Part shown: one piece after another, positions 8,276-36,206 of the stretch
Layout of the letters: each line of letters begins with the position of its first letter
Position numbering within the stretch: the stretch's first letter is position 1
From: Patescibacteria group bacterium
GTDB taxonomy: Bacteria > Patescibacteriota > Minisyncoccia > GCA-002772825
Assembly: GCA_024654625.1 (NCBI GenBank)
Contig: JANLHB010000039.1
Location: forward strand, 1 to 53,835
Reading direction: 5' to 3'
DNA length: 53,835 bases
Position numbers and translations under genes: made by a program
Notes under the pieces: generated by a model
What the model was told of the DNA's origin: nothing
Database searches by the model: none
Seen by the model: only the letters and a program-made list of their open reading frames with translations

Positions 8276-8863
8276 ATGCATTATATAGTAGGGCTCGGTA
8301 ATCCGGGTGATGAGTATAAAAGTAGCCGACATAATACCGGCAGGATTCTTGCGGAATCTTTTTGTAAGAAAGAAAAGTTTTCAGAGTTTAAAGTCGATAA
8401 GAAGTTAAAGGCTGTGGTGTCGGGTGGAAAGATGGGAAAAGAAAAAGTGGAGGTGATACTCCCTGAGACTTTTATGAATAAGTCAGGACTCTCTTTGAAG
8501 CTGGTTATCACGAGCAAAAAGAAGGCGCAAGATTTGATTGTTATCTATGACGATTTGGACTTGGCGCTTGGCACCTTCAAGATCTCTTTTAACCGTGGCT
8601 CGGGCGGGCACAGGGGGGTTGAGTCAATCGTCCGCACTCTAAAGACTAAAGAGTTTGTGAGGATACGGGTAGGCATATCACCGGCGACCCCGAAGGGGAA
8701 GGTGAAGAAACCGCAAGGGGAGAAGAAGGTGGTGGATTTCATCATCGGTGATTTCAAGCCGAAGGAGCTTGAGGTTATAAAAAAAGTCTCTAAGAATATC
8801 CACGAAGCGCTTGAGATGATAGTCACCGAAGGCTACCCAAAGGCAATGAGCGTGTATAACTAA
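8276..8863 (+). CDS. pth: Peptidyl-tRNA hydrolase
   Basis: N-terminal VGLGNPGDEY..RHNTG motif, conserved Pth fold length. Confidence 0.9.
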   Translation: MHYIVGLGNPGDEYKSSRHNTGRILAESFCKKEKFSEFKVDKKLKAVVSGGKMGKEKVEVILPETFMNKSGLSLKLVITSKKKAQDLIVIYDDLDLALGTFKISFNRGSGGHRGVESIVRTLKTKEFVRIRVGISPATPKGKVKKPQGEKKVVDFIIGDFKPKELEVIKKVSKNIHEALEMIVTEGYPKAMSVYN

Positions 8864-8871
8864 AAACTAAA

Positions 8872-8896
8872 TTGTGCAACACTTAGTGTTGCACAA
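8872..8896. repeat. GTGCAACAC-tta-GTGTTGCAC palindrome (REP-like hairpin) downstream of pth
   Basis: Perfect palindrome with the same GTGCA core as the hairpins flanking the RAYT gene. Confidence 0.6.
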
Positions 8897-8981
8897 TTGC
8901 AAAACATAAAATATTGTAAAAATTGTAAAAAAAGCACTCAACGAACCTTAGTAAGGTTCGTTGAGTGCTTTGGGCAATGAT

Positions 8982-9419
8982 CTATTTAAACGTCGTCTCG
9001 GTACAATGCATAATAAGAGTACAATTTCCACTATCATGCCACAAGAGAACGTGAACTCCCTCGACGTTGCCCATAGCTATGTAGCGAAGGTTGCCATCTT
9101 CTTCGAATATCAGGCTTCGGAATTTCTCTTGTAGTATTTGAATAAGTTCATCTCTTCTTTCGCTTGGGCAGGATATTATAGTCTCCCTTTTCCCAATAAG
9201 TAAGTTTAGTTTATTTTCCTTATTCCTTAAAAGAAAAAGAATCTCATTCTTTGTCCAAAGGCCACAAGAGATGGATAAAAGATCCCTGGTAGTTAGAAAT
9301 CTACTTAAATCTTTTTCAGTCGGACCAAATGTGTTGCTGGTGGGAAGTGACCGACTGCCGAATGGTCCTTGTGCTCTTTGTCTTAGCATTTCTTCTGACC
9401 TGTTTTTTATCCTCTTCAT
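8982..9419 (-). CDS. Hypothetical protein, no recognisable domain, slightly GC-richer than surroundings
   Basis: 145-aa ORF between terminator palindromes, adjacent to the RAYT. Confidence 0.4.
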   Translation of the reverse strand: MKRIKNRSEEMLRQRAQGPFGSRSLPTSNTFGPTEKDLSRFLTTRDLLSISCGLWTKNEILFLLRNKENKLNLLIGKRETIISCPSERRDELIQILQEKFRSLIFEEDGNLRYIAMGNVEGVHVLLWHDSGNCTLIMHCTETTFK

Positions 9420-9552
9420 GACATACCCTCCTTTTTTATATTTTCTTATTTCTTTCGATTTTTATTGATAATATGCTATCTGTACCCATAAAAGCATTTG
9501 TGTCTTAAAAAGTCAAAATAAACAGACTTTTATCACCTAAATTGTTTTGTTT

Positions 9553-9575
9553 TGTGCACCACTCGGTGGTGCACA
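9553..9575. repeat. REP-like palindrome tGTGCACCACTCGGTGGTGCACa upstream of the RAYT gene
   Basis: Palindrome 29 nt upstream of the transposase start. Confidence 0.75.
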
Positions 9576-9603
9576 GTTTAGGTATTTATGATATGATTGA
9601 ATC

Positions 9604-10257
9604 ATGAGGGAATTTACTCCAGCTAGAGGTGAAATATATCATTGTTTTAATCGTGGCACAGAGAAACGAAAAATTTTTCTTTCTAAAAAAGATTATGAAA
9701 GATTTATTGTAAATCTAATACTTTTTAATACAGAAAATACACCGAATAGAAATATCTCTCGTTATAGCCTGGAAGATGCTTATCAGAACATCCCCAGCGA
9801 CCCCCTTGTAAAAATTCATGCTTTTTCACTTTTGCCTAATCATTTTCATTTAATTTTAGAACAGGTTGCAAGCAATGGAATAGCTAGGTTTATGCAAAAA
9901 ATAGAAATGGGTTATGCTCATTATTTCAATAAATTGTATTCAAGAAATGGAAATTTATTTCAAGGTGCTTATAAGATAAAGCACATAGATGATGATTCCT
10001 ATCGATTATATATTTCTTTGTATGTTCATCTAAACGCCCTTGATCTTTTGGGTTCAGAGAAAAATTGGAAAGAAAAGGGGATTAAAAATAAGAATAATGC
10101 TATTAATTTTTTAAGAAATTATAAATGGTCAAGTTTGAGAGAATATTTAGGAGAAGATTCTTTGCCGTTTGTGAGTCGCGATATTTTCGATGAGATTTAT
10201 AGTTCTCCGAAAGAATGGGAAGTTGCTATGAAAGAATGGGCTTCAGGCGAATTTTAG
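9604..10257 (+). CDS. REP-associated tyrosine transposase (RAYT), IS200/IS605-like Y1 HuH transposase
   Basis: HuH motif LLPNHFHLIL and downstream catalytic Tyr region (GYAHYFNKLY); ~200 aa; flanked by inverted GTGCAC palindromes. Confidence 0.8.
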   Translation: MREFTPARGEIYHCFNRGTEKRKIFLSKKDYERFIVNLILFNTENTPNRNISRYSLEDAYQNIPSDPLVKIHAFSLLPNHFHLILEQVASNGIARFMQKIEMGYAHYFNKLYSRNGNLFQGAYKIKHIDDDSYRLYISLYVHLNALDLLGSEKNWKEKGIKNKNNAINFLRNYKWSSLREYLGEDSLPFVSRDIFDEIYSSPKEWEVAMKEWASGEF

Positions 10258-10268
10258 ACTAACTAAAA

Positions 10269-10308
10269 TGTGCACCACCGAGTGGTGCACAGAAGTGGTG
10301 CACAGAAG
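10269..10308. repeat. REP-like palindrome tGTGCACCACCGAGTGGTGCACag plus a tandem partial repeat (aagtggtgcacag x2) downstream of the RAYT
   Basis: Reverse complement of the upstream palindrome (loop ACTCGG vs CCGAGT). Confidence 0.75.
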
Positions 10309-10356: not shown

Positions 10357-11481
10357 TTACTGTTGTTCTGTTTCGGTGATCGCTTTGCCTTCTTCAGCGT
10401 AGTTTAAGGTCAATTTTTGTTCTTTAGGGTCAAAGAGAGTTATCTGGAAGGCGTATGATTTACCAAGTTCCAGCTTCTTCTTCATCTCTTCCTCTGTACC
10501 GAACTCTGATATGTGGACGAGGCCGGCTACACCCTCTTCAATACTTGCCAGCGCTCCGTGCCTGTTGAATTTGATGATAACACCCTTGATGATGTCACCC
10601 TTCTTGTATTTGTCTTTCGCTTTCTCCCATGGGTTGGGCTTGAGAGCTTTCACCGAGAGTGAGATCTTGCCGTCTTTTATCTCTATGATCTTTGCTTTTA
10701 TCTTCTCTCCCACTTTGAAGAGGTCTCCCGGGTTCTCAATAAGTGTCCAGTCAAGTTCTGAGATGTGAGCTAATCCTTCAAGTCCTTCTTCAATTTTTAT
10801 AAAAATTCCAAAATCAACTACCCCGGTTATGTTTCCTTCTATAATATCGCCTACTTTATATTTTTCCACTATTTCTTTTAGCTCCTCTGACTCTATTTTC
10901 TTCTCTGACAAAATAATTCTCCCTTCTTTCTGATCGCTTCCTATTATAGTGACAGCTATTTTAGTGCCGACAAGTTTTTTAAGTTCTTGAAGAATCTTGT
11001 CTTTATCGCCATCTTCAATTCTCGGATAATGATCAGGTTTTAATTGTGAGGCCGGTAAGAACCCTGGAATTCCATTCCAGTCCATGATAAGACCGCCTTT
11101 ATTGGCGTCTGTAACAGTAAGATTTAAAGCGATGTTGCTTTTCTGAGTTTCTTCAACTTCAGCCCATATTTTTTCTTGTTTAGCTTCTTTTAATGAAAGC
11201 TCTATATAACCGTCTTCATTTTCAATTTCTACCACTTTTGCGCTTATAGAATCGCCGGGTTTTAGGATCTTTATGATATCTCTGGCATTATTGAATTCTC
11301 TGCCATATATTATACCTGTGCCAAAAGGAGTAATATCTACAAAAATGGAAGATTGTTCCTTTCCTATAACCTTTCCTTCGATTAATTCGTTGATTCTGGG
11401 ACGAAGGGCAGGCTCCTTCCTTAGTAGAAGGTCCATTACTCCCATTGATACCTCTTTTGTTGGTTCTGCTAATGTATTCAT
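10357..11481 (-). CDS. rpsA: 30S ribosomal protein S1, 4 S1 domains
   Basis: Repeated S1 OB-fold motifs (GDIIEGNITGVVDFGIFI...GLAHISE; GEKIKAKIIEIK..ISLS). Confidence 0.8.
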   Translation of the reverse strand: MNTLAEPTKEVSMGVMDLLLRKEPALRPRINELIEGKVIGKEQSSIFVDITPFGTGIIYGREFNNARDIIKILKPGDSISAKVVEIENEDGYIELSLKEAKQEKIWAEVEETQKSNIALNLTVTDANKGGLIMDWNGIPGFLPASQLKPDHYPRIEDGDKDKILQELKKLVGTKIAVTIIGSDQKEGRIILSEKKIESEELKEIVEKYKVGDIIEGNITGVVDFGIFIKIEEGLEGLAHISELDWTLIENPGDLFKVGEKIKAKIIEIKDGKISLSVKALKPNPWEKAKDKYKKGDIIKGVIIKFNRHGALASIEEGVAGLVHISEFGTEEEMKKKLELGKSYAFQITLFDPKEQKLTLNYAEEGKAITETEQQ

Positions 11482-16928: not shown

Positions 16929-17767
16929 TTGACTTATAAACCGGCATATATATAATAGTATGGTAGTTATGAGAATACTGATAAATAAAAGTTTCAACAA
17001 GTGGGCAAGGTGATTCCTTCTGTTTATGCTATAACCTTTGCCGCTTGAATAAGCGGCTTTTATTTTTCCGGAACGATAGAACTTTTAAAATTGAATAGCA
17101 GGTAAAAATTAGAATAAATATATAAAAAGTTTATAAATTTCCTAGTAGGAAATAAGAGCATATGGTGGATGCCTTGACTTAAAGAGGCTATGAAGGACGT
17201 GGCTAAGCTACGATAAGCTTCGGGGAGGTGCCAAGCGACCTTTGATCCGGAGATGTCCGAATGGGGAAACCCGTCAGAGTAAAGCTCTGTCAGGCGCCGT
17301 TAAAAGCGCCAGCTAACCCGCTGAAGTGAAACATCTCAGTAAGCGGTGGAAAAGAGAAAAATTTTTATTCCCTAAGTAGCGGCGAGCGAAAAGGGAATAG
17401 CCCAAACCAGTTTTTAACTTTGTTATGAATTGGGGTTGTAAGGCTTTAACGTTCTACTTCTTTTTTAATATTAAATTGCGGAGTAGAAGGAGAGTCATAA
17501 ATTATTTTGTTAGTTGAGTTTGCTGGAAAGCAAAACCATAGAGGGTGATAGTCCCGTAAGCGAAAACAAAATAACTCTTTTGTTATTGACCTTGAGTACC
17601 TCAGGACACGAATGGCCTGGGGGAAGCAGGCAGAACTAACTGCCAAGGCTAAATACTCTTTAAGATCGATAGTGAACAAGTACCGTGAGGGAAAGGCGAA
17701 AAGAACCCCGGTGAGGGGAGTGAAATAGAACCTGAAACCATATGCTTACAAGGAGTCGGAGCGGGTA

Positions 17768-17933
17768 TCACATTGCATGTGATTTGAAAATTCGAAATTC
17801 GAATATCGAAATTCGAAACAATTATTAAAATATAAATTTTAATGTTTAAAACATTAAAATTTATAAAATTAGAATTTGTTTTGTATTTCGGATTTGTGAT
17901 TTCGTGCTTTCGCAATCATGCGTAGCGTGATGC
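17768..17933 (+). other. Intervening sequence (IVS) copy 1 in 23S rRNA, helix-25 region
   Basis: 166-nt AT-rich palindromic element replacing the helix-25 tip; near-identical to the copy at 19181-19346. Confidence 0.7.
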
Positions 17934-19180
17934 CCGTGACGGCGTGCCTATTGAAGAATGAGTCAGCGAGTTTATGCGTATTGCTTAACTAATCCCATAA
18001 GGGAGGAGTTTTAGGGAAACCGAGTGTTAATAGCGCGAACACAGCTTTTTAGTTTTGTTGTCTTGATCAATTCATTGATCTTGATACAGAACTAAGGAGC
18101 TGTATGTAGTACGTATAAGACCCGAAGCCAAGTGAGCTTGCCATGGGCAGGGTGAATTTTGCAGAAATGCAAAAGGAGGCCCGAACCGGTTGGTCGTTCA
18201 ATTCCATCGGATGACCTGTGGTAAGGAGTGAAAAGCTAATCGAACTTGGTAATAGCTGGTTTTCTCCGAAATAGCTTTTGGGCTAGCGTCTTAGTTACCC
18301 TCTGGGGGTAGAGATACTGGAAGGTGTAAACAGGGAGCAATCTCGTTATACCTACCAAACTCCGAATACCAGAGACTAAATCTAAGGCAGTTAGACTATG
18401 GGGGCTAAGCTCCATTAGTCAAAAGGGAAACAGCCCAGATCTCAATCTAAGGTCCCTAAATCTTTGCTAAGTGCACTTAAGGTGGTGAAATTTCTCTAAC
18501 AACGAGGAGGTTGGCTTAGAAGCAGCCATCCTTTAAAGAAAGCGTAACAGCTCACTCGTCAAGAGATATCGCGCCGCAAATACTCGGGGCTAAGCAAGGT
18601 ACCGAAGGTGAGGATTTCAATGTTTACATTGGAATGGTAGGAGAATATTCTGAACTGCGTTGAAGCCGAAGGGGTGACCCACGGTGGAGCGTTTAGAAGA
18701 AAGAATGCTGACACAAGTAACCACAATCCCGGTGAGAGAACCGGGACGCCGAAAGACTAAGGGTTCCTGGGCAATGGTGATCATCCCAGGGTTAGTCGGA
18801 CCTAAGGCGATGACGAAAGTCGGAGTCGATGGACACACGGTTAATATTCCGTGACCCCTTTATTTTTCGATGGAGTGACGGAGGAAATAAATGAGAGCAT
18901 ATTATTGGATTTATGTTTCTTATCTTAAGGAGCGTCTCTTAGGTAAATCCGGGAGACTGATTTAATTCAAGTTCCGAAGATAGGAGAAACTTCTTCCCAC
19001 GGGTTGAGGGATTCTCATGAAGAGCCTTCCTAGAAAAACTTCTAAGATTAAAAATAGAGGGACCGTACCGTAAACCAACACAGGTAGTCAGGTCGAGAAG
19101 ACCAAGGCGAACGGGTGAGATATCTCCAAGGAACTCGGCAAAAAAGCGGCCGTAACTTCGGAATAAGGCCTCCCAGCGCA

Positions 19181-19346
19181 TCACATTGCATGTGATTTGA
19201 AAATTCGAAATTTGAATATTGAAATTCGAAACAATTATTAAAATATAAATTCTAATGTTTTAAACATTAGAATTTATAAAATTAGAATTTGTTTTGTATT
19301 TCGGATTTGTGATTTCGTGCTTTCGCAATCATGCGTAGCGTGATGC
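19181..19346 (+). other. IVS copy 2 in 23S rRNA, around E. coli position 1710-1750, near-identical to copy 1
   Basis: Direct repeat of the 17768-17933 element with ~4 substitutions. Confidence 0.7.
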
Positions 19347-19573
19347 GTTGGGCGCAGCGAAAGTATCCCTGGCGACTGTTTATCAAAAACACAGCTCCCT
19401 GCGAACTCGTAAGAGGATGTATAGGGGGTGACGCCTGACCAATGCGAGAAGGTCAAATACGACTGGTGCTTCGCACCAGAATTTTCAAGTAGCAATCTTC
19501 AATTTTCAAAATTTGGAAATTGTAAATTGAAAATTGGAAATTCTAGCGCGGAGTGCTGAGTTGTATAAGCCCT

Positions 19574-19613
<40 letters not shown>

Positions 19614-20196
19614 TAATTCCTTGTCTGGTAAGTTCAGACGTGCACGAATGGCGTAACGACTGGGGAACTGTCTCGGAGATATGCCCGGTGAAAATGCAAT
19701 GGGGGTGAAGATGCCCTCTACCTGCAGTTAGACGAAAAGACCCCGGAAGCTTTACTATATCTTGATATTGAATTTAGATTTTGGATGCGTAGCATAGGTG
19801 GGAGGCTTTGAAGTTGTCCTTTTGGGGACAATGGAGCCGTCAGTGAAATACCACTCTTTCTTGATCTAAATTCTAACCTGTACGGCAAAAACGTACGGAA
19901 ACAGTATCTGGTGGGTAGTTTAAGTGGGGCGCTTGCCTCCTAAAGAGTAACGGAGGCGCTTATTAAGGTTAGCTAGGCGCGGATGGAAATCGTGCCGATA
20001 GTGTAATGGCAAAAGCTAGCTTGACTGCGAGCGGGACATCGCAAGCAGAGTGGAAACACGAACATAGTGAACCGACCATCCGCATTAGATGCGGTGGGAG
20101 ATTAACGGATAAAAGCTACTCCGGGGATAACAGGCTAGTTCCGCCCAAGAGTTCATATCGACGGCGGAGTTCGGCACCTCGATGTCGGCTCAACTT

Positions 20197-20245
<49 letters not shown>

Positions 20246-20272
20246 AAGTTACGCGAGCTGGGTTCAAACCGT

Positions 20273-20764
20273 CCAGATGCTAAAATCTATTTTTTGGCTT
20301 TTGAGCGGTTTGAATCAAGTTCACGACATTGAGAAGTAGTGTTATAAATTTTTTCGTTTATGAAAAAAGATAGAATCAATCAAATCACGGCGGCCTCTTT
20401 TTAGTAATAATTTGAGGACCAGTCAACTTATATCGGTGAAACCTCTTTCATAAAGAGGCAATACCGAGGGAAGTATTATTGTAGGTTTTGTAAGGGGAGA
20501 CGATGTAGCTTAAAAATCAGAATTTTGCTACGTGATTCGAACACGAGCACTTTCTGATACGGTAAAGCACCGATTGAAAACCGGAAGAATGTGGCAGCCA
20601 CCACCTTCGTCACCCCAGAAAAAATAAGGTCAATCAAAATTGATTGACCCCCTTACAAAACCTATAATAAGTACACCCGTAGAGACTAAATGTTGACTAT
20701 CCAAATTTGATAAAAATTTGGATAAAGTTATAGTCCAATGCATTTGGCGACAAATGATATCATG
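20273..20764 (+). mobile_element. ORF-less group I-type intron in the 23S rRNA peptidyl-transferase region (E. coli position ~2593)
   Basis: 492-nt insertion between ...AACCGU and CGUGAGACAG; the 5' exon ends in U and the insert ends in G, as for group I splice sites. Confidence 0.55.
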
Positions 20765-20818
20765 CGTGAGACAGGTTGGTCTCCTATCTACTGCAGGCGT
20801 TTTGATTCTTGAAGAGAT

Positions 20819-20849
<31 letters not shown>

Positions 20850-21090
20850 TAACCTCTGGTGTACCAGCTGTCCTGCCAAGGGCACTGCTGGGTAGCTATG
20901 TTGGGAAAGGATAACCTCTGAAAGCATCTAAGAGGGAAGCCAACTCTAAGATTAAGAATCTTTAAGACTCCTGAGAGATGATCAGGTTGATAGGCTCTAA
21001 GTGTAAGCGCAGTAATGCGTTTAGCTGAGGAGTACTAATAGTTGTTTTCCTACTAGGAAATTTGTAAATTTATATATATTAAAAAAGAAC

Positions 21091-21212
21091 GCAGAATGTT
21101 GGTGGTTTAACAGGGAGGGTACACCCGATCCCATTCCGAACTCGGAAGTTAAGCTCCCTAGTGGCGATGATACTCCTTATGGGGGAAAGTAGCTGACCGC
21201 CAACATTCTGCG
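21091..21212 (+). rRNA. rrf: 5S rRNA with extended terminal stem
   Basis: Conserved 5S core (cccgatcccattccgaactcggaagttaagc), flanking cgcagaatg/cattctgcg stem, T-run after. Confidence 0.85.
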
Positions 21213-22009: not shown

Positions 22010-23120
22010 AAATCATATAGATTGGATTTTATTTCTCGCTATACTGCCTATTTTAGGCGTTGGTCTTGTCACTATGAAGAGTTTTGGCGGAGCTGAAAGC
22101 GACTATTTCTTTACTAGGCAACTTATCTGGATATGTGTAAGTTTTATAGTATTTTTTACTTTTAGTTTCGTGGATTGGCGTTTCTTGAGAAATGGGAAAT
22201 TATTAGCTATTTTTTTTGCTATCTCTTGCTTTGTTCTTGCTGTTTTGTTAATTTTTGCCGCCGCTGTGAAGGGAGCATCAAGTTGGATTAATTTAGGCCT
22301 TTTCTCGGTGGAACCGTCTGACCCTATGAAGCTGCTCCTTATTATGATTTTGGCCAAATATTTTTCTCGTCGCCATATTGAGATTGCAAATATTAAACAT
22401 ATTATTATATCTGGTATTTACGCTTTTGTTCCGTTTGTTCTGATTCTTTTTCAGCCGGATTTTGGTTCGGCAATTATAATTTTCTTTATTTGGCTAGGGA
22501 TGATTCTTGCTTCCGGGGTTTCAAAAAAACATCTTTTTTTGGTTTTTTTTACCGCTACTATTACTTTTGCCACTTTTTGGATGTTTATTTTTGCTCCTTA
22601 TCAGAAGGCGAGGATAAAGTCATTTATAGATCCGTTGGCCGATATCCAAGGGTCAGGATATAATGCTTATCAGTCTATGATTGCCGTCGGTTCCGGGCAG
22701 TTGTTTGGCAAGGGAATTGGCTTTGGCACGCAGAGCCGATTGTCATTTTTGCCTGAGCATCAGACGGATTTTATTTTTGCCGCCTTTGCTGAAGAATGGG
22801 GTTTTATAGGGGTGACTATTTTGTTCTTATTTTTTGGAATTGCCGTATGGAGAATTTTAAAGAATGCCATGCTTGGCGCCTCTAATTTTGAGAGTCTTTT
22901 TGGAATTGGTTTTGCTATATTTTTAATAAGCCATTTTGTTGTTCATATAGGTATGAACATAGGTCTTTTGCCTATAACCGGCACCACTATCCCTTTTTTA
23001 AGTTATGGCGGGTCGCATATGTTTACTGTATTTGCCGGTCTTGGCGTTCTTATGGGGATGAGGCGTTATGGCCGGGTCACCCACCATGAGGATACGTATA
23101 GAGAGTTTTTAGGGCTATGA
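21993..23120 (+). CDS. SEDS-family peptidoglycan glycosyltransferase (FtsW/RodA)
   Basis: 10-TM profile, conserved PDFGSA and EHQTDFIFA..EEWGF motifs. Confidence 0.85.
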   Translation: MKAIYKNHIDWILFLAILPILGVGLVTMKSFGGAESDYFFTRQLIWICVSFIVFFTFSFVDWRFLRNGKLLAIFFAISCFVLAVLLIFAAAVKGASSWINLGLFSVEPSDPMKLLLIMILAKYFSRRHIEIANIKHIIISGIYAFVPFVLILFQPDFGSAIIIFFIWLGMILASGVSKKHLFLVFFTATITFATFWMFIFAPYQKARIKSFIDPLADIQGSGYNAYQSMIAVGSGQLFGKGIGFGTQSRLSFLPEHQTDFIFAAFAEEWGFIGVTILFLFFGIAVWRILKNAMLGASNFESLFGIGFAIFLISHFVVHIGMNIGLLPITGTTIPFLSYGGSHMFTVFAGLGVLMGMRRYGRVTHHEDTYREFLGL

Positions 23121-33545: not shown

Positions 33546-35032
33546 TATATAATGTATTAGAGCCTATAAGAAGTATAGGTCGTCCTTTAATAATTTAAAA
33601 ATCCACTAAATAACAAGTCCAAAAAAACAATGATAGTCCGCCTAGGGCGGATTAATTCGGGCAATCAGCTTTCAGCTGAGCCCTCATTGAATATTATTCT
33701 TTCTTTTGTTCCGTTCTATTCAACCGAACATTCTTCGGAATGTTTTAGGTTTTTTTAAGAGTTTGATCCTAGTCCCGATTTTACTCGCATCTTTGATGCG
33801 ATTGTAAAATCGAGGATTCTCGAAAAATATATCCCGATTTCATCGGGAGTTATTTTTCGGAACTCAGGATATGTGATTTATTCATATATTTTGTTTGAGA
33901 ATCAATACTTCTTTTTTAAGAGTTTGATCCTAGCTCAGGATGAACGCTGGCGGCGTGGATAAGGCATGCAAGTCAAACGGGCACCTTCGGGTGCCAGTGG
34001 CAGACGAGGTAGTAACACGTAGGAACGTGCCTCTAAGTTGGGCATAATCCGCCGAAAGGCGGACTAATTCCCAATAGTCCCTTCGGGGTAAAGTCCGCTT
34101 CGGCGGACGCTTAGAGATCGGCCTGCGAGCTATCAGCTTGTTGGTAAGGTAATGGCTTACCAAGGCGATGACGGCTAGGGGAGGTGAGAGCCTGACCCCC
34201 ACCGATGGCACTGAGACACGGGCCATACACCTACGGGTGGCCGCAGTCGAGAATATTCCACAATGGGCGAAAGCCTGATGGAGCGACGCCGCGTGCAGGA
34301 TGAAGTCTTTCGGGATGTAAACTGCTTTTATGAGGGAGAAATTACGATGATGTTACCTCAAGAATAAGGGGCTGCTAAACTCGTGCCAGCAGCAGCGGTA
34401 ATACGAGTGCCCCGAGCGTTATCCGAAATTATTGGGCGTAAAGGGTTTGTAGGCGGCTTTGTTAGTCTCTTGTTAAAGCTTCCGGCTTAACCGGAAAAGT
34501 GCAAGAGAAACGGCAAATCTAGAGGATGCGAGAGGTCTATGGAACTCATGGTGTAGGGGTGAAATCCGTTGATATCATGGGGAACACCAAAAGCGAAGGC
34601 AATAGACTGGCGCACTCCTGACGCTGAAAAACGAAAGCGTGGGTAGCGAATGGGATTAGATACCCCAGTAGTCCACGCCCTAAACGATCTTCTCTAGCTT
34701 TTTGGAGTATCGACCCTCCGGGAGGCGAAGCTAACGCGTTAAGAGAAGCGCCTGGGAAGTACGGTCGCAAGACTAAAACTCAAAGGAATAGACGGGGACT
34801 TGCACAAGCGGTGGATCATGCGGTTTAATTCGATGATAAACGAAGAACCTTACCAGGGTTTGAAACCCAAGCGAAGTCCGCCAGAAACGGCGGACGTCTC
34901 ACAAGGACGGTTGGGCAGGTGATGCATGGCTGTCGTCAGTTCGTGGTTTGAATTGTTCCCTTAAGTGGGGTAACGAACGCAACCCCCGTTGCCTGTTATA
35001 TGTTTCAGGCGAGACTGCCCCTCACCAAACTC

Positions 35033-35122
35033 GGAAGAGTTTGGAAATCCGAAGCACGAAGCACGAAAAACGAAACAAAAAGTTTCGAATTTCGAATTTC
35101 GGATTTAACCAATCTTATTGGT
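35033..35122 (+). other. Palindromic IVS in 16S (around E. coli position 1130-1140)
   Basis: ccctcaccaaac...[cgaa/ttcg-rich insert]...ggtttggtgaggg extends a helix by ~90 nt. Confidence 0.6.
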
Positions 35123-35361
35123 TTGGTGAGGGGAGGAAGGCGGGGATGACGCCAAGTCAGCATGTCCCTTTGACACCCTGGGCTACACGCATGATACAAT
35201 GGTCGGTACAATGGGTCGCTAAGCGGTAACGCGGAGCCAATCCCATCAAAGCCGATCCCAGTCCGGATTGAGGTCTGCAACTCGACCTCATGAAGTTGGA
35301 ATCGCTAGTAATCGCAGGTCAGCTATACTGCGGTGAATACGTTCTCAAGTCTTGTACTCAC

Positions 35362-36206
35362 AATAAAAGCGCGCAGCAGCGCATAATTCTAAATGGTTAA
35401 AATCCATTCCCCTGATTCGTCGTCGGGGCGTAGCAGAAAGATAGCCTTTTACCGCGAGGTAAATGGTGGAGGATCTGAAAGCAAAAGATAGTCCAACATA
35501 AAAATGAGCGTATTGATTTACGAATGGGTGGTGAGCGTAGAGAAAATACACAAAAAACTCAGTTGGAATGTCTGGAAAAGAAATATGCGTGACCTGTGGA
35601 GATCTGACGTTGTTATCAGCCTTTAAGGCTGATATAATTAAACTTACGCAGCGTCAGAAGTCAGCTGAGTCATAGTATCCGCCTTAGGCGGAGAAGGCAC
35701 TCACTCTATGCAAAAGATTAACCCAGATTATATTGTAGGTTTGGTGGACGGCGAAGGCAGTTTTACTGTCTATGTACGCAATCCATCAAAAATTTCTCTT
35801 ACTCGAAGAGTTAAGATAGAACCAAAATTCTATTTGAAACTAATTGAGAAAGATAAAAGAATTTTGTATCAATTAAAAGATTTTTTTGGTTGTGGAAGTG
35901 TGTATTTTCAAAAAGATACACGACCTAATCATCAAAACTGTTATAGATACGAAGTTTATAATAGAAATGATATCCGATCGATCATAATTCCATTTTTTCA
36001 GAAATATAAATTGAAGTTTCCTTCAAAAAAGAAGGACTTTGATATATTCTGTAAAATGTTTTCTTTGATTGAGAAGGGTGAACACCTCAAAGAATCTGGT
36101 TTGAAGAAGTTGTATACCTTGAAACAACATATGCATTAGAGCTCGCCGTATACGGGAAATCCGTCCGTACGGTGGGAACATAAATTCGTAGTTTAACGAA
36201 GATAAT
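35362..36206 (+). mobile_element. Intron (probably group I) in the 16S decoding-centre region (between E. coli positions 1399 and 1400), carrying a homing endonuclease ORF
   Basis: 845-nt insertion between GUACUCAC and CGCCCGUCAC, with an internal LAGLIDADG ORF. Confidence 0.7.
35708..36139 (+). CDS. Single-motif LAGLIDADG homing endonuclease, intron-encoded
   Basis: GLVDGEGSF motif at the N-terminus, 143 aa, located inside the 16S rRNA gene. Confidence 0.8.
   Translation: MQKINPDYIVGLVDGEGSFTVYVRNPSKISLTRRVKIEPKFYLKLIEKDKRILYQLKDFFGCGSVYFQKDTRPNHQNCYRYEVYNRNDIRSIIIPFFQKYKLKFPSKKKDFDIFCKMFSLIEKGEHLKESGLKKLYTLKQHMH

Follow-up and report, generated by a model that had tools for sequence, protein, structure and literature searches.

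The window analysed here, the whole 53,835-bp contig JANLHB010000039.1 of a Patescibacteria metagenome-assembled genome (MAG) with a GC content of 0.397, carries between pth and rpsA a gene for a 217-aa protein of the Y1 HUH transposase family, and this gene is bracketed by two copies of one perfect palindrome. Read along the plus strand, the unit consists of one palindrome, a putative promoter, the Y1 HUH gene and the second palindrome; its parts and immediate neighbours are collected in Table 1. An earlier note, made from the letters of this DNA alone, had read the locus as a REP-associated tyrosine transposase (RAYT) with hairpins like the repetitive extragenic palindromic (REP) sequences of other bacteria, and had suggested that the system is or recently was active. 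Work on RAYT/REP systems has been concerned almost exclusively with proteobacteria that have large genomes. The location given in that note, between pth and rpsA, agrees with the domain matches of the two neighbouring genes, and the Y1 gene is, as it had said, present in one copy within the 53.8 kb.

Table 1. Features of the pth-rpsA interval and its borders, with positions in the window and strand in brackets where given
Feature	Position	Sequence or domain	Remark
pth	8276-8863	PF01195	upstream of the Y1 gene
Solo variant hairpin	8870-8898	AATTGTGCAACAC-TTA-GTGTTGCACAATT	13-bp stem; directly after the pth stop codon
orf145	8982-9419 (-)		145-aa orphan open reading frame between pth and the Y1 gene
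Upstream palindrome	9553-9575	TGTGCACCAC-TCG-GTGGTGCACA	10-bp stem; ends 28 nt before the ATG
Promoter-like site	9570-9597 (+)	TGCACA-16 nt-(TG)TATGAT, i.e. TGCACA-16-TGTATGAT	
Y1 gene	9604-10257 (+)	PF01797	217 aa; ATG start
Downstream palindrome	10269-10291	TGTGCACCAC-CGA-GTGGTGCACA	starts 11 nt after the stop codon
Exact 13-nt tandem duplication	10282-10307	GTGGTGCACAGAA x2	gene-distal arm plus 3 nt
rpsA	10357-11481	S1 domain	convergent to the Y1 gene

The Y1 HUH protein and its palindromes

Membership of the 217-aa protein in the Y1 HUH family is clear from Pfam, where it matches Y1_Tnp (PF01797) with 30.8 bits against a gathering cut-off of 23 (E 3.5e-7). The HUH motif (LPNHFHLIL, with N79-H80-F-H82) and the catalytic tyrosine (LYVHLNA, Y140) that the earlier note had recognised in this open reading frame (ORF) are both in place, and H80, H82 and Y140 are invariant among 71 homologues. 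The same set shows little or no variation at N79-H80-x-H82, Y140-x-x-x-N144, G116-x-L-F-Q-G and, in the tail, at W155 and S176, the last two belonging to a C-terminal helical extension that holds W155-K-E-x-G and Y173-x-W-S-S. The AlphaFold (AF2) model of the protein has a pLDDT of 91, and its best Foldseek match in the PDB is 4er8_A (E 2e-6; TM 0.70, target-normalised), which is E. coli TnpAREP bound to a REP hairpin; the IS608, ISDra2 and IS200 transposases, with 2a6m and 2xo6 among the top matches, rank behind it. A profile of the family pairs the HUH motif and the tyrosine with the HUH motif and Y132 of ISDra2 TnpA (E 0.008) and reaches TnpAREP weakly (E 0.26). At E<=1 Pfam returned Y1_Tnp only, with no helix-turn-helix (HTH) or Bac_DnaA_C domain detected.

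The consensus motifs of the family are PNHFHL, LFQG, YIHLNP and WSS, the window protein having YVHLNA at the tyrosine. A by-eye comparison with Table 1 of PMC6006769 suggests that this set, NHFH / FQ / Y[IV]HLN[PA] / WSS, matches subclass 2.1 of the TnpAY1 proteins (Quentin 2018, PMC6006769), the equivalent of Bertels group 1 and of the TIRYTs described by Di Nocera 2013 (PMC3733652), named for their terminal inverted repeats (TIRs).

The two 23-nt palindromes are exact reverse complements of each other, as the earlier note had it, and because their stems are perfect palindromes the two copies differ in the 3-nt loop only. The inverted match runs on for about 9 nt towards the gene (CACAgtttaggta versus the reverse complement CACAttttagtta, 7/9), and the inverted orientation is therefore real. 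What had been called a partial tandem repeat beyond the downstream copy is an exact duplication. When the window was searched for the 21-nt pattern with up to 3 mismatches, 3 sites were found against 0.00 expected from 100 shuffles. The third is the variant hairpin behind pth, which the earlier note had placed at 8872-8896 and which is real within slightly wider borders; its 3 mismatches include a compensatory change of a C:G to an A:T pair. Folded as single-stranded DNA (ssDNA), the three hairpins reach -11.3, about -11.4 and -13.5 kcal/mol with z between -3.5 and -5.6, the first value (z -5.6) belonging to the upstream palindrome and the last to the solo variant.

An independent view comes from a covariance model, R1, made of 15 hairpins from related loci and none from the window, with which the window was scanned with filters off. 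R1 recovers exactly these three sites, at 37-39 bits and E about 1e-10: the downstream palindrome (39.4 bits), the upstream one (37-39 bits) and the solo variant (38.5 bits, E about 1e-10, matched over 8871-8897 as TGTGCAACAC-TTA-GTGTTGCACA). A fourth match of 14 bits at 22938-22961 falls within a 375-aa ORF and was set aside as a chance match. All three sites lie inside the 1.4-kb pth-rpsA interval (8870-10291), and dispersal, hence activity, is therefore not demonstrated for this genome, so that the window does not support the suggestion of a presently or recently active REP system. The solo hairpin after pth has orthologues at the same position in two related loci, L081 and L146, with a different sequence in each, and it resembles the palindrome flanking Y1b, one of the Y1 paralogues of L001; the L081 spacer also contains a solo copy identical to the window palindrome.

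The arrangement across Patescibacteria

Homologues of the Y1 protein are widespread, with at least 547 relatives among the GTDB species representatives, almost all of them Patescibacteria MAGs, and 1,554 clusters at 50% identity in an exhaustive profile search (E<=1e-30). For the family comparison we used 80 Y1 loci together with close relatives, each locus being given an L number, and took a gene as bracketed when an identical arm of at least 7 nt was present on both sides. The same perfect palindrome stands on both sides of 44 of the 79 testable Y1 genes, against 2 of 283 control ORFs, and both of these proved to be extra Y1 copies, leaving 0 true controls. Palindromes are conserved at the gene ends of relatives, a point that the earlier note had raised when it named what would refute it, and the REP-like arrangement it had described is a REPtron-like layout kept at the ends of homologues across Patescibacteria.

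The sequence of the palindrome is specific to the lineage, and the more alike two proteins are, the more alike are their arms (Mantel r 0.29, 0 of 2000 permutations). Measured over 47 loci, the median gap is 24 nt between the end of the upstream hairpin and the ATG, and 0 nt between the stop codon and the start of the downstream hairpin. The loop has the same orientation upstream and downstream in 21 cases and is inverted in 23, and the orientation is therefore not fixed. Tandem duplications of the gene-distal arm occur also in L011, L012, L040, L070, L076, L078 and L082 and at the solo site L095. Could it be chance that palindromes stand on both sides of the ORF, where they might be no more than the usual terminators of adjoining genes? 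The window does contain many terminator-type hairpins. However, the number of exact 23-nt reverse-complement pairs expected by chance is 0.00, and the same layout built from other sequences is present in 44 of the 79 homologous loci and in no true control; this explanation is effectively refuted and we assign it a negligible probability.

The surroundings of the gene were compared in the same relatives. Locus L081, at 82% protein identity, has the same order hisS-lepB-pth-Y1-rpsA-DUF4015, lepB and hisS lying further upstream of pth in the window as well. In L082, L001, L085, L140 and L142 (65-73%) the pth-rpsA interval is "empty" and the Y1 gene lies between lepB and pth, a comparison of related intervals having been called for in the earlier note; in L076 (42%) an inverted Y1 gene lies between pth and rpsA, and more distant homologues stand in other, unrelated contexts. 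Where one genome has several Y1 copies, these are divergent paralogues with 43-65% identity to the window protein, and in L001 each of the two paralogues has its own palindrome type. Divergent paralogues within a genome have likewise been reported for class 2 TnpAY1 (PMC6006769). The exception is L012, where positions 1250-2990 hold two identical tandem units of about 925 bp each (hairpin, promoter, 234-aa Y1 gene, hairpin), either a genuine duplication or an assembly artefact.

These data bear on the possibility that the 756 bp at 9553-10308 make up an autonomous insertion sequence (IS) of the IS200 type, its palindromes being subterminal end hairpins and the element itself transposing in place of a mobilisation of separate REPs. 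In size and layout the unit matches IS200 (subclass 1.1), which likewise has a single tnpA in about 0.7 kb and a hairpin at either end, and the upstream hairpin is, as in IS200, placed to block or regulate transcription. The unit occupies differing intergenic spacers in close relatives and is inverted in one of them, its distant homologues have unrelated neighbours, the tandem copies in L012 are identical, and another locus, L097, resembles an internally deleted copy. In addition, the GC content of the Y1 gene is below that of the remainder of the locus in 77 of 77 loci (mean 0.35 vs 0.43; window 0.31 vs 0.40), a difference that might come from a biased composition of the protein, from low expression or from a foreign origin. 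Against these points stand the single copy in 53.8 kb, copies within genomes that are divergent and not near-identical, and a neighbourhood kept down to 65% protein identity. The tyrosine motif is Y---N[PA] (Y-V-H-L-N-A) and not Y---Q, and the protein has 217 aa with a C-terminal extension as opposed to about 150 aa (PMC6006769, Table 1). The nearest fold is that of TnpAREP, and perfect palindromic ends in either orientation are unlike the fixed, asymmetric left and right ends of IS608. We therefore hold an autonomous IS to be rather unlikely, though worth keeping in mind. The pattern of low copy number, mainly vertical descent and occasional local rearrangement is that of class 2 (RAYT-like) genes and not of an active IS.

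The region between the upstream palindrome and the ATG adds a further constant element. In the window the -35 of the promoter-like site lies within the right arm of the upstream palindrome and its -10 ends 6 nt before the ATG; in a consensus scan the site scores 9/12 with the TG extension, which alone is not significant. Across the family, a -10 with at least 5/6 matches ending 4-11 nt before the ATG precedes 54 of 82 Y1 genes, against 86 of 301 control ORFs whose starts are naive first-ATG calls (Fisher p 1e-9). A -10 box adjoining the ATG implies a leaderless transcript with the -35 position inside the hairpin, and the sequences thus suggest that the Y1 transcript is leaderless. On the minus strand the downstream palindrome is followed by TTTTAGTTAG and is terminator-like for transcription coming from rpsA; both window palindromes have T-rich tracts on the inward side. 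Plain intrinsic terminators were considered as an explanation for the palindromes and rejected, as in the window the minus-strand readings alone are terminator-like and inward T-tracts are not general across loci.

Solo copies of the hairpin were met outside the Y1 loci of relatives. A metagenome scan with TGTGCAYSACNNNGTSRTGCACA returned 59 loci, among which at least 10 contigs, all from one groundwater sample and with a GC content of 0.44-0.50, contain the exact window palindrome, with unrelated flanks and mostly in intergenic positions; only one of these contigs, L089, has it adjoining a Y1 gene. Eight of them share a one-sided extension of about 20 nt (tgggaaatgtggtRtaatat) that corresponds to the -10 region of the Y1 promoter. 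The solo copies in L139 (678-730), L110, L134 and L097 carry about 20 nt of Y1 promoter in this way (extended -10, TGTGGTATAAT), L110 and L134 being homologous loci with the loop flipped and L097 looking like an internally deleted copy that retains hairpin, promoter and a few codons. Two further palindrome variants occur at about 5-7 distinct sites each, one of them being the imperfect palindrome that flanks the Y1 gene of L082. Matches on contigs with GC above 0.55 were imperfect, lay within unrelated high-GC sequence and were treated as noise. These contigs show that copies of the hairpin spread in this clade, although nothing of the kind is seen in the window.

In L139 the hairpin-plus-promoter module ends up 13 nt upstream of the ATG of an unrelated gene, which suggests that such modules can land in front of host genes. 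One might go further and suppose that this is a Patescibacteria-wide, largely vertical Y1 HUH gene co-opted by its hosts, whose cognate hairpin bears its own leaderless promoter and whose enzyme seeds hairpin-plus-promoter modules before host genes. If true, it would be a mobile promoter and insulator system in ultra-small genomes and not a selfish REP system; we hold the idea to be very unlikely as it stands.

A related thought is that the protein has been fully domesticated for some other ssDNA task, with the palindromes purely cis-regulatory (operator, bidirectional terminators or insulators, stabiliser of the mRNA 3' end) and kept alike by gene conversion, with no mobilisation at all. The position of the palindromes relative to promoter and stop codon is fixed phylum-wide, the family is as broadly conserved as described above, dispersed copies are absent from the window, and the inward T-rich tracts and the terminator-like minus strand just mentioned would fit such functions. 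However, some means of copying is required to account for identical 23-nt palindromes at ten or more sites in relatives that are unrelated to each other, the inward T-tracts are not general among the loci, solo variant hairpins and arm duplications cluster round the gene, and the invariant HUH motif and tyrosine argue for retained nuclease chemistry. Full domestication is in our view distinctly unlikely.

A proposed low-copy unit acting on its own hairpins

Considering together what is observed, namely the fold and motifs of the protein, the palindromes and their geometry across the family, the conserved gene order and the solo copies of relatives, we propose, as the probable if by no means secure explanation, that the pth-rpsA interval holds a low-copy REPtron/TIRtron-like unit in which a class 2 Y1 HUH enzyme with an intact catalytic site works on the hairpins at the two ends of its gene. 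The protein would be a class-2 TnpA-Y1 endonuclease and ligase for ssDNA with a TnpAREP fold, H80 and H82 forming the metal site and Tyr140 serving as the nucleophile. It would most likely recognise its cognate palindrome when this is extruded as a hairpin on ssDNA, for example at a replication fork, and then cut near the foot of the hairpin and rejoin the ends. Repeated rounds of cutting and rejoining, or gene conversion from one copy to the other, would leave the flanking copies identical within a genome and different between lineages, with the loop flipped in about half of the lineages. The same processes would generate the tandem duplications of the outer arm and the solo or variant hairpins nearby, and would occasionally move or invert the unit locally. 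In some relatives the hairpin, together with about 20 nt of adjacent promoter, has been set down at unrelated sites.

Lying over the -35 of the gene's own, putative promoter, the upstream hairpin is well placed for autoregulation or insulation, and the downstream hairpin would close the unit and could stop convergent transcription from rpsA. The descent of the gene lineage itself is mostly vertical, with the hisS-lepB-pth-rpsA neighbourhood kept at 65-82% identity, and the system is low-copy here.

Among known systems, the REPtron of the E. coli type (TnpAREP/RAYT; subclasses 2.2 and 2.5, Bertels groups 2 and 3; 4er8) is alike in being a single-copy Y1 HUH gene bracketed by its own palindrome, with inverted flanking copies as in the window, one palindrome family per gene lineage, mostly vertical inheritance and the nearest solved fold. 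It differs in several respects from the window unit, which has short perfect stems with 3-nt loops, a longer C-terminal extension and 3 local sites in 53.8 kb where REPs number tens to hundreds, and which resides in a streamlined Patescibacteria genome as opposed to a large proteobacterial one.

For the TIRtron or TIRYT the likeness is in the protein, whose motifs match by eye the second variant of subclass 2.1 (NH[YF]H, FQ, Y[IV]HLNP, SS tail; about 220-240 aa), and in flanking repeats that have few or no other copies; among TIRs in the literature, too, there are some that reach over the ends of the gene and are "partly or wholly self-complementary" (PMC3733652). Subclass 2.1 is reported to be without REP-like hairpins, its TIRs mostly carry GGGGWSAS and its median length is about 238 aa (PMC6006769, PMC3733652). 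The unit described here, in contrast, has perfect hairpin palindromes in a fixed geometry and is without GGGGWSAS, and where TIRYTs have an HTH/Bac_DnaA_C domain Pfam detects none here, the model having a helical C-terminal extension.

Several points weigh against our proposal of an enzyme acting on its own hairpins. The NCBIfam model REP_Tyr_transpos (NF047646) scores 30 bits with a cut-off of 80, which puts the protein outside the canonical RAYT family; the RAYT identity given in the earlier note thus survives at the level of Y1_Tnp domain and best fold and not at that of the named family. The GT[AG]G foot of canonical REPs is absent from the window palindromes, whose foot reads TGTGCA..., and by eye, in place of a formal scan, it is not visible in any of the 47 family hairpins. 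R1 found no family hairpin in the other ~52 kb of the window, and 35 of the 79 homologous loci fail the strict bracketing criterion. Shared ancestry alone could account for the covariation of hairpin and protein. In the promoter comparison the first-ATG control starts deserve caution, and the dispersed copies lie on metagenome contigs that are not assignable to one genome. Hairpin binding and cleavage, the mechanism that keeps copies identical and the regulation are steps that we infer.

Y1 genes bracketed by palindromes (REPtrons) or by inverted repeats (TIRtrons, some self-complementary and low-copy) are already published. What appears to be undescribed in the literature we searched is their prevalence in Patescibacteria, the tie to motifs of the subclass 2.1 type and the fixed hairpin-promoter-gene-hairpin geometry; for RAYT, REP or IS200 in Patescibacteria, the candidate phyla radiation (CPR) or Parcubacteria this literature returned nothing relevant, one match merely mentioning KEGG K07491 in an archaeon. 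In a published survey class 2 TnpAY1 genes are found mainly in bigger genomes, and here a large Y1 lineage is seen in some of the smallest bacterial genomes. Its members have the motifs of a subclass reported without REPs, yet they follow a strict order of hairpin, gene and hairpin, in which the promoter of the gene is overlain by the hairpin. With 23-nt perfect hairpins and a 217-aa enzyme the unit offers a compact model for hairpin recognition and copying by Y1 HUH proteins, for the upkeep of identity between the two ends, and for the question whether vertical descent can maintain such systems when their copy number is very low. Annotation is affected as well, since the numerous genes called "transposase" in MAGs of Patescibacteria are single-copy RAYT-like genes and not active copies of an IS.

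Neighbouring and other features

The ORF between pth and the Y1 gene, orf145, had been called GC-richer in the earlier note. With a GC content of 0.393 this is true relative to the Y1 gene (0.31) and not relative to the window (0.397). Neither Pfam nor NCBIfam gives a match for it, and among 5.8 billion proteins it has only two homologues (80% and 49% identity), the more distant of which stands in an unrelated context without Y1. The ORF is kept at the same position in L146. L081, syntenic in other respects, lacks it except for the last ~20 nt, which are left beside the hairpin, the boundary of the deletion abutting the hairpin. A role for orf145 as cargo or partner of the Y1 unit was rejected, given the missing family match, the two homologues, the absence in L081 and a GC content equal to the window mean. 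Between the solo hairpin and the 3' end of orf145 there is a 19-bp perfect hairpin at 8931-8971, conserved in L081 and L146, which is probably a bidirectional terminator.

The earlier note had also counted among the related hairpins one inside a disrupted tRNA-Val copy. The hairpin exists, at 1170-1188, with TGCACC/GGTGCA arms and a 7-nt loop, and the family tie was not recovered by R1 at E<=10 with filters off; as it shares only these arms we leave its membership unproven, while kinship is possible given that variant hairpins of L146 likewise have 7-nt loops. As an observation in its own right, the tRNA-Val gene (1031-1103) is followed directly (1104-1215) by a partial second copy of its 3' half, comprising the variable loop, the T-arm and the 3' strand of the acceptor. 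The T-loop of this copy is split by a 54-nt insert that consists of two adjacent hairpins, one at 1138-1166 and the one just described, with the similar 7-nt loops CTTCAGT and CTTTAGT; the insert folds as ssDNA to -19.6 kcal/mol (z -6.2) and neither hairpin is recovered by R1.

Elsewhere in the window, the 23S rRNA match at 17142-21058 extends over 3,917 nt, against 2,925 nt in the model, which amounts to insertions of about 1 kb. Two near-identical AT-rich palindromes of 35 nt lie within this region (17831-17865 and 19244-19278), and between 17300 and 19900 the plus strand has no ORF that reaches 80 aa, while on the minus strand only two short ones, of 88 and 81 aa, overlap it. There is no linkage between the 16S rRNA gene (33912-35408) and the 23S-5S pair ~13 kb upstream of it (17142-21205), and the 16S gene is followed at 35623-35699 by a match to group II intron domain D1-D4 with 37 bits against a cut-off of 35.

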